Assembly (NCBI GenBank): GCA_965262115.1
Contig: OZ253496.1
Span: forward strand, 160,001 to 224,000
Source of the DNA: Nitrospinales bacterium
Lineage (GTDB): Bacteria; Nitrospinota; Nitrospinia; Nitrospinales; VA-1
Length of the DNA stretch: 64,000 bases
Direction of reading: 5' to 3'
Shown: piece after piece, positions 29,729 to 46,678 of the stretch
Layout: each line of letters starts with the position of its first letter
How positions within the stretch are numbered: position 1 is the stretch's first letter
Made by a program: the position numbers and the translations under genes
Notes under the pieces: model-generated
What the model was told of the DNA's origin: nothing
Seen by the model: the letters and a program-made list of their open reading frames with translations, nothing else
Database searches by the model: none

Positions 29729-30679
29729 TCAAGTGCTGGCAATGAGATTTTCATTCCAGAGTGTTTTTGTTTTGATCATGGTATTGATGATCGTTAATAA
29801 CTTTCTCATGCATGCGGTAATGGCAACTTTAAAGGGTTTGCCCTTTTCGATGAGGCGTGTGTAAAAGGTACGAATCACGGGATTATGCTGCATGGCAGTG
29901 ACGGCGGCCATGTATAAAGCGGCACGCACATTGGCGCGGCCGCCCCAGATACACCGGCGGCCCCGGAACTTTCCGCTGTCCCGATTGAGGGGAGCGAGAC
30001 CGATAAGGGCGGCGATTTGCTTCTGATTAAGAACTCCAAGTTCCGGAACCCCGGCCAAGAGGTTGACAGCCAGAACGGGACCGGCACCGGGAACACTTTG
30101 TATAATCTGGTCGTGCTCACGCCAGGCAGAACTGTTTTTGATGGTTCTGGAAAGGTCGCCATCGATTTTTCGCAAGCGTTTTTTAAGAGATTCGATATGC
30201 TCCTTAATGTCTTTACATATCCATTTTGGAGCTTGTTTTAGACGGGTTTTTTCTTTGGTCAGCATCTCGATCAACTGGCGACGGCGTGTCACTAGAGCTG
30301 AGAGTTCAAGAGATTCTTCGTCTTTGATTTTCCTGACCTCAGGACGTATGGCCTTGGCAAAATGGGCCAGCACAAGAGAATCAATGACATCGGTTTTTGC
30401 CAGTTTCCCGGTGGCTTTGGCAAAATCACGAACTTGCCGTGGGTTGACCACGGCTACTGGCAGTCGACCCGCAACCAGGGCCGAAGCCAACGGGATCTCT
30501 AAGCCGCCTGTGGCTTCCAAAACGATCAATGGAGGATTTAAGGCGGATAAACTCTCGACCAAACCAGCAATCCCTTCTTCATTGTTAGCGGTTTGCCAGG
30601 TTTCTTGAGTCATGCTGTCAGCAACATCCAGATGGAGTTTAGAAATATCGATGCCAATAAAATGGGGTTTCTGATTCAT
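29729..30679 (-). CDS. IS110 recombinase/transposase (DEDD RuvC + Tnp domain)
   Basis: GIDISK, EATGG, KTDVIDS, DSG and ACMRKLL motifs. Confidence 0.96.
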   Translation of the reverse strand: MNQKPHFIGIDISKLHLDVADSMTQETWQTANNEEGIAGLVESLSALNPPLIVLEATGGLEIPLASALVAGRLPVAVVNPRQVRDFAKATGKLAKTDVIDSLVLAHFAKAIRPEVRKIKDEESLELSALVTRRRQLIEMLTKEKTRLKQAPKWICKDIKEHIESLKKRLRKIDGDLSRTIKNSSAWREHDQIIQSVPGAGPVLAVNLLAGVPELGVLNQKQIAALIGLAPLNRDSGKFRGRRCIWGGRANVRAALYMAAVTAMQHNPVIRTFYTRLIEKGKPFKVAITACMRKLLTIINTMIKTKTLWNENLIAST

Positions 30680-36821: not shown

Positions 36822-36828
36822 CTGATCG

Positions 36829-37017
36829 TCAGTCAGAGCTTTTTTCACCCAGAATCAAAAAACAGTTTGTATCGGTCACCTGTATGTCTATGATTGGAAT
36901 TTTCTGCTGGTGCATCTCCTGAATGAGCTTATTAACCATGCTATCTATCGCCGCAGCGCCTTCTTCGGCAATATCGAGGACTCTGATACCTGTGACTATT
37001 TGGTTGTTAAGGGACAT
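36829..37017 (-). CDS. Small hypothetical protein
   Basis: 62-aa ORF co-oriented with the tRNA and DUF507 genes. Confidence 0.55.
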   Translation of the reverse strand: MSLNNQIVTGIRVLDIAEEGAAAIDSMVNKLIQEMHQQKIPIIDIQVTDTNCFLILGEKSSD

Positions 37018-37472
37018 TCAATTAAAAGCCGACCCGGCTACCCGCCTGTCCATAGACCATTACCCCTTGAATTTAAAGGGGAAACAAGTTTTACGGTGTG
37101 ACCAAATTTTCAGGCATTATCCACTATTTACCTCTTGTAATCAATACTAATTGGAGAATCCGCCTAAAAACAGGAGTACTTCTGTAGTTCATACAACATT
37201 TTACGGGGCGGATTCGACTGGGAATGTCGCTCTTTATTCAGTGAAGGCCCAAGTTGATCTAGGGGGTTATGTTTTTAATATGACGCACTATCGGCGCGAG
37301 GCACTTAATTGCATCGAGCAAGGAAATGACATAACTTGCGACTTTAAACCACGTTTAAATTAGCTTTTTCTTGTCGATCAAAATTTGATGAGCGTCGGGT
37401 TATAATATTTCCGCAAAAACTGAGCTCCTCATAAGGACTTTTTAAGAATGACCTAGCGGCTAAAATTATTTG

Positions 37473-37502
37473 AATGTCCGCTTCCGACCCAAAGCGGACA
37501 TT
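37473..37502. repeat. 11-8-11 palindromic site A
   Basis: AATGTCCGCTT-CCGACCCA-AAGCGGACATT with perfect arms. Confidence 0.85.
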
Positions 37503-37536
37503 AGTTCTGTATTAGATAATGGAGATTGTGAGGTAT

Positions 37537-39681
37537 ATGAAAATAGATATTCATGTACATACAAAAAAAACGAAGCAAGGTGATGCTGCGACACGAGAAA
37601 TTGAGGCGAAAAGATTTCACAGAATCATCTCATCTACTGAAGTAAAGATAGTCGCGATTACCAATCATAATGTTTTCGATTCGGCTCAATATAAAGAGTT
37701 CGTCGAGGCCGTAGGCAACGATTTTCAAATATGGCCAGGTGTAGAGCTTGATGTCCTTGAGGATGGCCGTAAAGGCCATCTAATAGTGGTGGTATCGCCA
37801 GAACATGCAAACCAATTAGAAGAGACTATCGTAAAAGTTTCCAAAGATAAAAGTCCTGACAATTTCAATATTTCTATCAGTAAAGTTATATCTAATTTTT
37901 ACAAGCTAAACCCACTTTATATCGCTCACTATCAACAGAAAAAACCCCATTTGTCAGACGAAGATATTGAGCAAATTATTACAAGCACATCGAACAAAAA
38001 TAGAATGCTAAAGGAAGCAACCAATGCAGTTTCTGCCGGAATTTTTATTAGTCATGGTCACGCTTCCATTTATGGTTCTGATCTGCAAGATTGGGAGAAA
38101 TATCAATCAAATTCGGAAAATCTTCCTGATCTCAGGTTGCCAGTTGAGAGCTTTGAGCAATTTTGTTTGCTGCTTGATAAAGATCAGAAGGCCATTGACA
38201 CTCTTTTGGACAAAAAATCCCACGAAAAAATTCTTATAGAACCTTTTAAGGATGATCCGCCGCTAGAGCTGATTGTTTATGACGATATCAATATATTTTT
38301 TGGAGCAAAAGGAACAGGAAAATCAGAAATATTAACTGCTATAGGAAATTATTATTCTAACAAAGGAATAGCATGCAGGAAGTTTGAGGCTGGGTCTGAT
38401 ACGTTGGAAGAAATATATGATTTTAGCGGAAAGAATTTAAAGCTTGACCTAAATGATTACGATATTAATTATTGTCTCAAAGAAATTGAATTAATCAAGA
38501 ATGCCCAAGAGGTAAGCATAACTAGTTTATCAAAATACATAAATTTTCATAAAGGAAGTCTAACCAATAAAAAGGCAAAAAAAATAAAGATTAAGGATTT
38601 TTCGAAGGTGGATACCAAGAATTCCGAGAGACAATTTAAAAAGATACAAATTTCTGATAGGAAAGTAAAAGAATTTAAGGAATTCATAGTACAAAATACT
38701 GTTATTAAAGAAATCCTAACCGAAGAAAAAATCGGTACTCTAATCGCGATATTGACGGAAGCCATTCAAGGACTTGAAGAAAAAAGTTTTGAAGAATTCT
38801 CGAATGAAAAAACAGCTCATCTTTTTAATGGAATTATTGAAAAATTTAAAATGGAGGTTTCTATAAAAACCGGAACCCCTACCAAACCTAGTGAAACTGG
38901 ATTCCGTAAATACGCCGAAAACCGAATAAATATCGAAATGGCAGCAAAAACCATAACGGACAATATCAATAAAAAAATTGAGCCCACTAAAGAGTATGTA
39001 GGAAACCTAGATGAAAAAGGTGATCTATGCTGCAAAACCGAGATCGTGATCCAGAATGGTAAAATTAGTGATAGTAAATTTAAAACAATTAACAAATCAA
39101 TTAAAAAAAATCCGCAAAAAGACTTCTCAAAGAAAATTGCAAACATCAGAGGCAAGGTGTATACCCACGACCTTTTCGAGGAAATTTCGGAGCTGAATCA
39201 ATTAGAGGACATAGACAAAATCCCAACCATTCTTGAGCTTTTAATTTTCAATAAAATTTTTACAATTAAAGATAGTGAGTACAAGCCATCAACAGGAAAG
39301 GCTTCAATGATATTGCTTCATAAAGAGCTAAGTGAAGAGAAGGATGTGTATATTTTAGATGAGCCTGAAAAAAGCTTGGGCAATGAATATATCAACAACG
39401 TAATTGTTCCCCTAATTAAAGAAAAAGCAAAAATCGGGAAAAAATTATTTATTGCGACACACGATGCCAACATTGCAGTTAGAACCTTACCATACAACTC
39501 GGTTTATCGGCACCATAGTCAAAAGGGATATGAGACATATGTAGGCAATCCATTTTCCAATAATCTTGTGTATATCAAGGGATCGCAGGAAAATTTGGAT
39601 TGAAAAAATATAAGCATGAGGACATTAGAGGGTGGAATAGAAGCTTTTGGAGAAAGGGACCAAATATATGGTAACCCATGA
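37537..39681 (+). pseudogene. PHP-domain + ABC/AAA ATPase (TrlF/Ppl-like defence protein) with premature TGA at 39601
   Basis: DIHVHT, TNHN, PGVE, GSD, Walker A GAKGTGKS, LDEPE and ATHDAN motifs. The conserved-looking tail LEGGIEAFGER..Y lies in frame after the TGA. Confidence 0.8.
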
Positions 39682-39973
39682 AGCAGAGATAATCGAAGTT
39701 GAAAAGGAGTATTTGCTTGCTTTAAAAATGCCGGATAATACGCTCAAAATAGCTATTACCCAGGATGTGCCCAATGATGTTAAAAAGGTTTTTAATGAGC
39801 TGATCGTATCCCTTAAAAATGGAGTTTTTAAATTTGCATTAAAAGAGGTAAAGGATAAAGATATTTTTTATCATGTTGCAGAGGAATATATTTCCCAATT
39901 AAACTCGGAGCTGGATGTAATTTATAAGGAAATGGAAGAATATAATTTGTTAGGCCCAGATAATAATGAGTAA
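39668..39973 (+). CDS. Small acidic hypothetical protein coupled to the PHP-ATPase
   Basis: ATG overlaps the read-through end of the upstream gene. Confidence 0.75.
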   Translation: MVTHEAEIIEVEKEYLLALKMPDNTLKIAITQDVPNDVKKVFNELIVSLKNGVFKFALKEVKDKDIFYHVAEEYISQLNSELDVIYKEMEEYNLLGPDNNE

Positions 39974-40016
39974 AGCGGATGCGGATTCATATTGCTATAA
40001 AAAATACTAGAGAGAG

Positions 40017-40046
40017 AATGTCCGCTTATGGCCGAAAGCCGACATT
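40017..40046. repeat. 11-8-11 palindromic site B
   Basis: AATGTCCGCTT-ATGGCCGA-AAGCCGACATT with one arm mismatch. Confidence 0.85.
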
Positions 40047-40389
40047 GATCCCTCCTTTAATGGCTAGACAGAGTAATACCGGGTTACATCCTTATGTCAC
40101 AGAATTGACGCATTTCCGGGATATGGGGTTTTGCATCTGAGGTGTCTTTTTTTTGCAAATGAGCTGCGCGGTTACACAATGAAGGATAACATCCCATAAA
40201 ATTGACACGCCAAGTTGCGATTTTGGGATTTTTGTTTGCGAAAGGTTATTGAAATTATTCTACCAATTGAGTAAGATGGCAAATTAAAATAACTCATGAA
40301 AACACAAAAAGTTGCGGGAACGTGGCGATTTTCCAGGTTCCCACTTTTTGTTTGGATTTGGGCTCAAAAACGCTCCAACGAGGGAATTT

Positions 40390-45480: not shown

Positions 45481-45955
45481 GAGACCTTTGCATAAGAGGG
45501 TATTGCGGTAATTTTCATTAAACGGTGTTGAAGTTGAGAGTGAAACGCTATTGTTTGAGTAATGTTCTTTGACGCATATGGTTTTTATTGCTATTCGCTT
45601 TGCCGTTTTCCGTGTTCCCCAGGTGCTTTCCTCTCTCAAGCCAGAGTTTCCCGTGTTGGCGCTAAAACAAGACGCCGTTTCATATTCATGGCCATGCAAA
45701 CCAGGGTGATTTGAACCGCTGTCCGCGTCAACCCGATATAGCGTGCCCTGCGCAACCGGTAATGGTTCTTGAGGATACCGAAGACATGTTCTACGGGAGC
45801 GCGTAATTTAGTCATCCGTTTGTTGAATGCGGTCTGAGCAGGTTTCAGGGGATGATACTGATTGGGCCGATGCATAATGCCAACAAAAATACCGCGTTCC
45901 TGAAGTTCCTTGCGCCGGGAGTGTTTGCCATAAGCCTTGTCTGCATACACTGCTT
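45481..45955 (-). mobile_element. IS5-family remnant (transposase C-terminus 45636-45950 plus one terminal IR)
   Basis: YADKAY, RAPVEHVFG and RARYIGL motifs; TIR GAGACCTTTGCATAA at 45481. Confidence 0.85.
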
Positions 45956-45997: not shown

Positions 45998-46336
45998 TCA
46001 CACGTGCAACGCGGCTACTTCTCGGGTAGATTTTCTTGGGCGAGGGCGGACTTTAACTTTCACGTCCACTTGTTGATCGAATTTGTTCAGAATAGAAATA
46101 AGACGATCTGCCGTAAAGCGTCCTAACTTAACATTGCGAATGCGGGAAAATTCGCTTGCCTTCACCCCTGTTTGTTCTTCGGCCTTGCGCACAGAGAATT
46201 TCTTTTTATCGAGAATGTCAATGATCCTGGCGGCGAGAATGCATTTCAATTGCTCGGTGTCGGCATTGGGGTCTCCAAAATCCCGAAAGACATTGCCACT
46301 ACCATGTACTATTTCTATTTTTTCATCCTTCTTCAT
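45998..46336 (-). CDS. XRE/HigA-like antitoxin
   Basis: GSGNVFRDFG and HTH_37-like pattern; ATGA overlap with the upstream toxin. Confidence 0.85.
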   Translation of the reverse strand: MKKDEKIEIVHGSGNVFRDFGDPNADTEQLKCILAARIIDILDKKKFSVRKAEEQTGVKASEFSRIRNVKLGRFTADRLISILNKFDQQVDVKVKVRPRPRKSTREVAALHV

Positions 46337-46678
46337 TTTAAAAAGTCCTTTAAATCTTTAATCCTCTTTTTGATCAGGTCTATATCCTGCTTCGGGGTTT
46401 TAATGCCTGTTCTTGATTTTTTCTGGAAGGCATGGACGACCCAAATAGCTTCCCCAATTTGCAAAGCATAAACAACTCTGTAAGAATCGGCCCGGTATTT
46501 AAGAGCGATTTCTAAAACACCCGCACCAAGCCCTTTCAGGTTTTGCGTTTTCTGTTTTAGCTCCTTCTGCGGCCACGGTGAGAGTGCGCCTTATCTCCAG
46601 TTGTGCTCCTTCAGGAAACTTTTGATAATCCTTTAAAGCTCCTTTCACCCATGAAACAGGTCTTGTGTCTCTAATCAT
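46333..46678 (-). pseudogene. RelE/HigB (Gp49-like) toxin, frameshifted near 46540
   Basis: MIRDTRPVSW...AK/LKGLGAGVLEI..YRVVY..HAFQKKS in two frames. Confidence 0.8.

Follow-up and report, generated by a model that had tools for sequence, protein, structure and literature searches.

The locus described here lies in a 64-kb stretch of DNA (the window, to which coordinates refer unless a contig is named) from a Nitrospinales bacterium whose genome, G000, is assembled as one 2.68-Mb contig. Two 30-bp palindromic sites on the forward strand, at 37473..37502 and 40017..40046, bracket a two-gene unit. Gene 1 (37537..39603, forward strand) encodes a 688-residue protein with an N-terminal PHP-like domain and a split ABC-type ATPase, and gene 2 (39668..39973, forward strand) encodes an acidic protein of 101 residues that also follows gene 1 in a relative, G015. 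A preliminary description had read this arrangement as a cassette moved in trans by an unknown recombinase, and its account of the letters was accurate. The two 30-mers occur exactly as written, the left one ending 34 bp before the ATG at 37537, which is the start common to homologs, and the right one beginning 43 bp after the TAA at 39973. The cargo is AT-rich (34.1% GC, compared to 46.8% for the genome), and the motif is found only twice in the window (two matches at up to three mismatches; 0 of 100 shuffles had any). The window also lacks a tyrosine recombinase, in that PF00589 has no match there and all four of its matches in the genome lie elsewhere.

Outside the window, the motif recurs in G000 and in many other genomes. 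A scan for exact arms among species-representative genomes returned at least 120 loci, many of which contain arrays of sites; the 80 whose titles were listed come from Alpha-, Beta- and Gammaproteobacteria, Nitrospinaceae, an Anaerolinea and a Poribacteria record. A matrix built from 257 sites of these loci has a conserved, asymmetric center and places five further sites in G000 above the best score obtained with shuffled sequence, 8.4 bits. Within the genus, a degenerate form of the pattern is present in 17 of 23 genomes, and the reversed pattern used as a control is present in none.

The sites fall into two types. We typed 126 sites from G000 and from loci of relatives, the loci having been picked for the presence of sites or of the island end described below, and obtained 66 of type A (core CGACCC) and 60 of type B (core TGGCCG); because classes were assigned by core, the core conservation figures are partly circular, while the asymmetry of the arms is not. 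Both types carry one GC-rich inverted sequence as arms on the two sides of the core. Position profiles assign positions 12 and 19 to the arms, giving a 12-6-12 geometry (28-bp core, 11-6-11) in place of the 11-8-11 first proposed, and the spacers of the window sites, once thought to differ arbitrarily, are the two fixed cores of the family. The left site is thus type A (left arm 37473-37484, core CGACCC 37485-37490, gene-facing arm 37491-37502) and the right site type B (gene-facing arm 40017-40028, core TGGCCG 40029-40034, outer arm 40035-40046), so that the window pair is an ordinary A-cargo-B unit. That both cores are fixed across a family of genomes does not support reading the sites as simple attL/attR hybrids left by one event.

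Orientation is strict throughout this sample. The better conserved arm faces the gene, with values of 10.2 on the right and 7.3 on the left out of 11 for A, and 9.7 on the left and 7.9 on the right for B. A same-strand gene lies downstream of 44 of 63 A sites (14 have an opposite-strand gene and 5 have none within 350 bp) and upstream of 48 of 59 B sites (5 opposite, 6 none). Successive sites point the same way in all 69 pairs. These comprise 38 A-B pairs with gene-sized gaps of 371-6677 bp, 19 B-A pairs of which 16 are separated by 26-80 bp, and 12 like pairs (7 B-B, 5 A-A), which describes an array of the form A-gene-B-linker-A-gene-B. Scanning for sites that delimit genes, a check the preliminary description had proposed, uncovered A-gene-B units and arrays in many genomes. 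Among the B-A doublets (e.g., L183:3858-3913 and L184:8986-9041), 12 of 19 lie at a distance of exactly 26 bp, and most have an overlap at a common CATG; the offsets of alphaproteobacterial doublets are mostly 45-46 or 91 bp. Predicted folding is weak for most sites, with medians of -4.0 kcal/mol for A and -3.1 kcal/mol for B.

G000 itself contains a second array, at C1:1939845-1943123, which reads A, AAA-type ATPase, B, GNAT, B, Rieske-type gene, B (genes named by eye). Its sites, three matrix matches and a weaker fourth, separate co-oriented genes, and at the matching locus the relatives G013 and G019 carry different cargo. Two lone sites, one of type A and one of type B, lie at C1:1708900 and 1065844.

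We compared flanks over 7750 site pairs (2080 A-A, 1770 B-B and 3900 A-B). Homology restricted to one side was found in 21 A-A and 28 B-B pairs, or 49 of 3850 like pairs pooled, compared to 4 of 3900 A-B pairs; pairs among kin are not independent in these counts. The one-sided pairs form 19 groups, 18 of them of a single type, and both flanks are common to only two of the 7750 pairs. On the side of the shared flank the arm is more alike than background, and the opposite arm is not. In 9 of 38 junction rows, representing 7 distinct partners, homology switches at site positions 15-18, inside the core; most of the remaining rows cross a site common to both partners, where the switch cannot be placed.

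One of the in-core junctions is that of the window cassette against its copy at another locus, in G015. The two-gene cargo, present in 2 of 102 genomes of the order, is 90% identical there, and homology begins at 37490, which is site position 18. This bears out the earlier proposal that the sites bound the cargo. At the other edge, G019, G013 and G020 each have the same kind of Mu-like prophage end after a B site or half-site, with different genes in front of it; G019:C18, for instance, carries 40016-40176 at 95% identity behind a different gene. The exchanges are nearly all like-with-like and the folds are weak, neither of which fits the hairpin single-stranded DNA mechanism that had been offered to explain the unequal spacers.

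The PF00589 proteins of G000 are XerC, XerD, a short IntI-like gene and a fragment (named by eye), and no site lies near the IntI-like gene (C1:2164564). A profile search of the fetched loci identified a recombinase in G019 (L194:5811-6434, minus strand), where it adjoins a B site, and in a Sphingomonas record, where its neighbor is an A-type site. This candidate, which does not occur in G000, has about 208 residues and consists of a tyrosine recombinase catalytic domain only. R59, K87, H156, R159, H182 and Y191 are invariant in 20 of 20 sequences. It matches a PHROG integrase family at 1e-35, and its structure model (predicted local distance difference test, pLDDT, 68) matches the folds of XerA and Cre in Foldseek; on the integron integrase model TIGR02249 it scores 21 bits, against a cut-off of 265. 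Clustering 610 open reading frames (ORFs) from site loci revealed, by inspection, no recurring serine recombinase or HUH family.

Metagenomic homologs of the recombinase, of which the best 80 of at least 518 were fetched by protein alone, show how the gene is flanked. The reverse complement of the A core lies on its 5' side and that of the B core on its 3' side, each with an inner arm peculiar to the recombinase gene, and these inner arms account for the poor showing of the full-site matrix, which scored at only 1 of 76 loci (3') and 0 of 66 (5'). We then used half-site models derived from cargo sites only, with near-duplicate loci removed. At a threshold of at least 5 bits, the A half-site is found 5' of the gene in 37 of 70 loci and the B half-site 3' of it in 48 of 73, with windows and threshold that were set after the flanks had been inspected. 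Controls reached at most 7%: swapped models gave 5/70 and 2/73, the wrong strand 0/70 and 2/73, shuffles 6/700 and 13/730, neighboring genes 4/124 and 5/121, and G000 genes 1/222 and 1/222. Before removal of duplicates, both ends passed in 28 of 74 loci. Because the half-sites stand in the opposite order to those around cargo, the recombinase gene occupies the B-to-A slot, elsewhere a linker of 26-80 bp. The search for a co-occurring recombinase suggested at the outset thus yielded a specific candidate. Most recombinase copies (L222-L304) have a further hairpin that overlaps the 3' site at its inner arm, possibly a terminator or an extra binding site. In viral contigs, ten loci had an A half-site and, by eye, no recombinase.

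An enterobacterial version of this arrangement surrounds the fun(Z) gene of phage P2. Two family sites with the same arms bracket the gene, one on each side, at record positions of about 15332 and 17429, the second scoring weakly. Their cores are TCGCTC and GTGCCA, compared to GGGTCG and CGGCCA in other sites. Nilsson, Karlsson and Haggard-Ljungquist are said to have reported in 2004 that inverted repeats flank Z/fun in P2-like coliphages, with no enzyme assigned. These repeats are probably the enterobacterial sites seen here. Plasmid homologs of the recombinase have the same layout at 2 of 7 loci (in E. coli and Pantoea), again with cores TCGCTC and GTGCCA, so that the cores appear to vary together with the recombinase lineage. 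The likeness to the P2 Z/fun locus lies in the same arms around a variable gene slot; the cores differ, and the multi-cassette arrays, the range across phyla and the recombinase module are additions of the present analysis. The title of the 2004 paper (PMID 12949155), as cited in PMC6379469 and PMC9122126, invokes site-specific recombination.

The cassette sits within a larger island (37183..40176, forward strand, TGTAG...TTACA), a relic of about 3 kb of a Mu-like transposable prophage. G013, G019 and G007 lack the island, their flanks being 90-97% identical to those in G000, and these empty alleles have no site. The breakpoints lie about 290 bp to the left and 130 bp to the right of the palindromes, at Mu-type ends. 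The palindromes are accordingly not the borders of insertion into the chromosome, as had been supposed, and the single site for which the empty locus in relatives was to be checked is absent from all three. Of the two observations that were to decide against the cassette, breakpoints elsewhere in the empty alleles are indeed what we see, whereas the homologous cassette in G015 does start at the site. We likewise discarded the palindromes as attachment sites of the island, for the site-free empty alleles exclude this; tRNA-Gly as an attachment site, with the island 361 bp past the 5' end of the tRNA and no tRNA duplication seen; and Tn7-like ends, when the same end was found on a Mu-like prophage.

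The right end of the island (40093..40176, forward strand) reads TGTAACC... from outside, contains repeats spaced by 22 bp and is 84% identical to the end of a prophage in G020:C58. Ends of this type occur at 11 of 16 loci fetched. The G020:C58 element (L172, L173, L144) is an apparently complete Mu-like prophage of 40 kb with a TAATA target duplication and genes for a repressor, transposase A and B, Gam, terminase, portal, head and tail. One site array lies in the middle of its genome and another at its right end, and one cargo gene matches PADLOC PDC-S33 at 2.6e-101. A possible decayed left end at 37183..37226 (forward strand) is weaker: its local alignment to the left end of the G020 prophage has a score reached by 15 of 2000 shuffles. 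Between that end and site A lie the 3'-end scrap of an acyltransferase gene of family PF01757 (37343..37370, forward strand; 27 of 28 positions identical to G007 L148:9903-9930, where it precedes the same Mu-type end) and the 3' remnant of a D12 DNA adenine methyltransferase gene (37416..37445, forward strand; KTELLIRTF*), the gene that precedes the cassette slot at the prophage end. The methyltransferase remnant and the right end match the complete prophage of the relative and, for the remnant, prophage ends in several relatives; the island differs in being a 3-kb relic with no transposase and no target duplication. No Mu-type transposase was found in G000 by tblastn with the transposases of two relatives. 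By eye, the 3' end of the methyltransferase gene resembles the right arm of a site (L146, L156:3590, L186:8025, L176:9869), and several sites directly precede that gene tail, which may be a natural secondary site explaining why cassettes build up there.

Taken together, these comparisons of sequence make it probable that the two palindromes are A and B copies of a widespread 28-bp gene-swap site and likely the crossover sites of a tyrosine recombinase of about 208 residues that G000 lacks. The preliminary description's placing of the sites among those of tyrosine recombinases, and its idea of an enzyme acting in trans, both gain from this. The recombinase would bind the 12-bp arms. Tyrosine recombinases generally require homology in the core for crossover, and A would recombine with A, and B with B, within the 6-bp core. 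One crossover would excise or insert a circle of gene plus linker; a pair of crossovers would exchange the cargo that A and B enclose, in a natural form of heterospecific cassette exchange. New loci would arise from rare events between A and B or at secondary sites, where only half of the core is shared, and arrays that have no recombinase gene would be reshuffled only while the mobile recombinase module passes through. The window cassette would once have occupied the accessory slot of a Mu-like prophage, at its right end, and the prophage would have transposed between tRNA-Gly and tatC and later been deleted to 3 kb. Transposition followed by deletion would explain why the island has Mu ends as its outer breakpoints and the palindromes as its inner ones.

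We lean somewhat toward a broader statement: that this is a cross-phylum gene-capture system in which a minimal tyrosine recombinase, itself a mobile module with two sites that do not cross-react, swaps cargo by cassette exchange, stays in a genome only transiently while orphan arrays remain behind in chromosomes and prophages, and is also the enzyme at work in the variable Z/fun defence locus of P2-like phages. A number of observations weigh against these proposals. The recombinase occurs in just 2 of 120 genomes of the phylum, although sites are present in most of the genus, and 5 of the 7 loci with plasmid homologs have no recognizable site. Of 13 rows in which the left flank ends at an A site, 8 stop 2-15 bp outside it, in partners without a site, and are not explained by crossover in the core; two others stop 9 bp before a B site, and there too the partner lacks a site. 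No excised circle was seen among the contigs, which were the only material searched, and two joints of depth 2, whose sides span just 24-30 bases, were discounted. At the island, three host bases are missing and there is no 5-bp duplication (flanks ACTTC and CAATG). To these we add the failure of the full-site matrix at the recombinase gene, the choice of half-site windows and threshold after inspection, the scope of the metagenome sample, the kinship among site pairs and the partial circularity of the core figures.

An arrangement closer to integrons would use the same sites and enzyme, with the cassette running from the gene-facing arm of A through the core of B, A resembling attI and B resembling attC, and crossover at the edge without core homology. 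Junctions at position 18 with unrelated or unlike cores (the G015 copy, and a case in which the right flank next to an A core is of B type) suit this arrangement, as do A-B pairs that share only the right side (4, vs 0 for the left), the A-gene-B-gene-B-gene-B order of the second G000 array and the seven B-B successions. We nevertheless consider it unlikely, because A-B exchanges are rare (4 of 3900, all with one site, vs 49 of 3850 for like pairs), B-A doublets are commoner than single internal sites, and the hairpins are weak. The recombinase gene might also be a passenger module, with a host enzyme such as XerC/XerD moving the modules as in the dif modules of Acinetobacter. The excess of site-bearing genomes in the genus (17 of 23) over recombinase-bearing ones in the phylum (2 of 120), the presence of XerC and XerD in G000 and the dif-like geometry all point that way. 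Xer sites, however, have distinct C and D arms, whereas both arms here are one inverted sequence; the recombinase gene stands in the linker slot with inner arms of its own, unlike cargo; and the cores vary with the recombinase lineage in two enterobacterial cases. We regard a passenger role as improbable.

Five junctions switch at positions 15-16, the center of the site, as would be expected of a serine recombinase with a central 2-bp crossover, and the palindromes might alternatively be hairpin ends of a non-autonomous element of the HUH/REP type. Genome searches of G000 found no PF00239 resolvase and no PF01797 (Y1 transposase) match, no such family recurs among the 610 ORFs, most sites fold weakly, and the tie to a tyrosine recombinase gene is strong; we give these mechanisms little credence. 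Least probable of all is a reading of the palindromes as dispersed repeats or terminators, inert in themselves, that gather in accessory DNA. The site-free chromosomal allele and the island edges lying elsewhere would agree with inert repeats, and the left site is terminator-like, although promoter and terminator scans performed at chance level (1 terminator found, 2.1 expected). Two fixed asymmetric cores, strict co-orientation, in-core junctions and the association with a recombinase all speak against inert repeats, which junction mapping has already largely refuted.

Cassette exchange at A and B sites, as we favor it, would work like dif modules and integrons yet appears to fail their defining tests. 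The pdif modules of Acinetobacter plasmids, which depend on XerC/XerD, resemble it, according to the excerpted text of PMC9455709, in their 28-bp 11-6-11 sites, in accessory genes between site pairs, in identical modules in different contexts and in runs of modules. They differ in that the arms here are one inverted sequence rather than a XerC and a XerD arm, all sites are co-oriented with two alternating cores, the candidate enzyme is a mobile recombinase of 208 residues rather than the host Xer, and the sites occur in chromosomes and prophages of several phyla. Integrons share the arrays of mostly co-oriented single-gene cassettes, some defence-like, and arrays that persist without the enzyme, as in clusters of attC sites lacking integron integrases (CALIN). 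Here, judged from arms and folding, there is no attC (RYYYAAC...GTTRRRY, an imperfect hairpin of 57-141 bp), no GTTRRRY core and no long hairpin; each cassette has two site types, the window has no integrase, and the recombinase is about 100 residues shorter. The suggestion of a cassette system without attC sites has held up accordingly, with sites of 28-30 bp, other arms and weak folding. Engineered Cre/lox and Flp/FRT exchange with heterospecific sites is alike in co-oriented sites with shared arms and differing cores, and like-with-like crossover is predicted in both; the present system would be natural, with 6-bp cores and a catalytic-domain-only enzyme of a size like FimB/FimE. A full-text literature search that took in few subscription papers found no description of the two-core logic or of the link between site and recombinase, and the excerpted text of PMC8138268 includes no subgroup matching a catalytic-domain-only enzyme.

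The way in which genes are exchanged at such phage loci is called open in the excerpted text of PMC9122126, for the cos-proximal hotspot. For the replacement of genes at accessory and defence hotspots, P2 Z/fun among them, the present analysis names a candidate enzyme, a pair of substrates and a rule for crossover, and the sites provide a simple marker for mining cargo. If the proposal is true, a recombinase of 208 residues with naturally orthogonal cores could serve as a compact engineering tool.

The cargo in the window shows signs of decay. Gene 1 belongs to a family of at least 1797 homologs, and its alignment contains PHP-type histidine motifs and Walker A and B. Homologs have about 713 residues; a premature TGA at 39601-39603, where they carry tryptophan, removes 25 residues, and a lysine replaces the ABC-signature glutamate present in 7 of 7 aligned homologs. 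These letters are confirmed in contigs from two studies, one of which is possibly the source itself. This copy is likely impaired, and its sequence suggests a cargo now decaying. The family appears defence-like: the best of seven PADLOC matches at E<=0.01 is PDC-M49A (4.8e-28). None of the seven is a Ppl model, and the link to Ppl drawn earlier finds no support in this search, the likeness being a PHP domain fused to an ATPase. NCBIfam TrlF scores 59 bits against a cut-off of 350, a CehA/McbA domain is also below cut-off, and a sequence search of the PDB returned only HisP, weakly. Gene 2 has no match in Pfam, PADLOC, NCBIfam or PHROGs and no usable match in the Atlas, and its structure model is poor (pLDDT 50). 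About 10 of 43 cargo proteins picked from the arrays of relatives match a PADLOC model at E<=1e-5, and the others include transporters, GNATs and proteins of unknown kind, making the cargo mixed.

Other features were noted in passing. Rfam matched only a tRNA in the window, and a 56-bp blastn query against phages gave nothing useful. P4-type integrases adjoin sites in 4 of 80 flanked loci and were taken as island neighbors. L183 (G066:C22) is a satellite-like element with a P4-type integrase, at least eight sites around it and a 1649-residue cargo protein with a weak Avs2 match. At C1:1451796-1455203, G000 retains pieces of tail genes from a related Mu-like phage, with 54-57% identity to the G020 proteins. 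Within the window, a 360-bp intergenic stretch beside tRNA-Gly (36822-37182) has no Rfam match and is 74-96% conserved across the genus. A transposase at 29729-30679, apparently of IS110 type by eye, and a DDE transposase fragment at 45636-45950 have no visible link to the cassette, and an HTH_37 antitoxin-like gene at 45998-46471 forms, with a short upstream ORF, a likely toxin-antitoxin pair.

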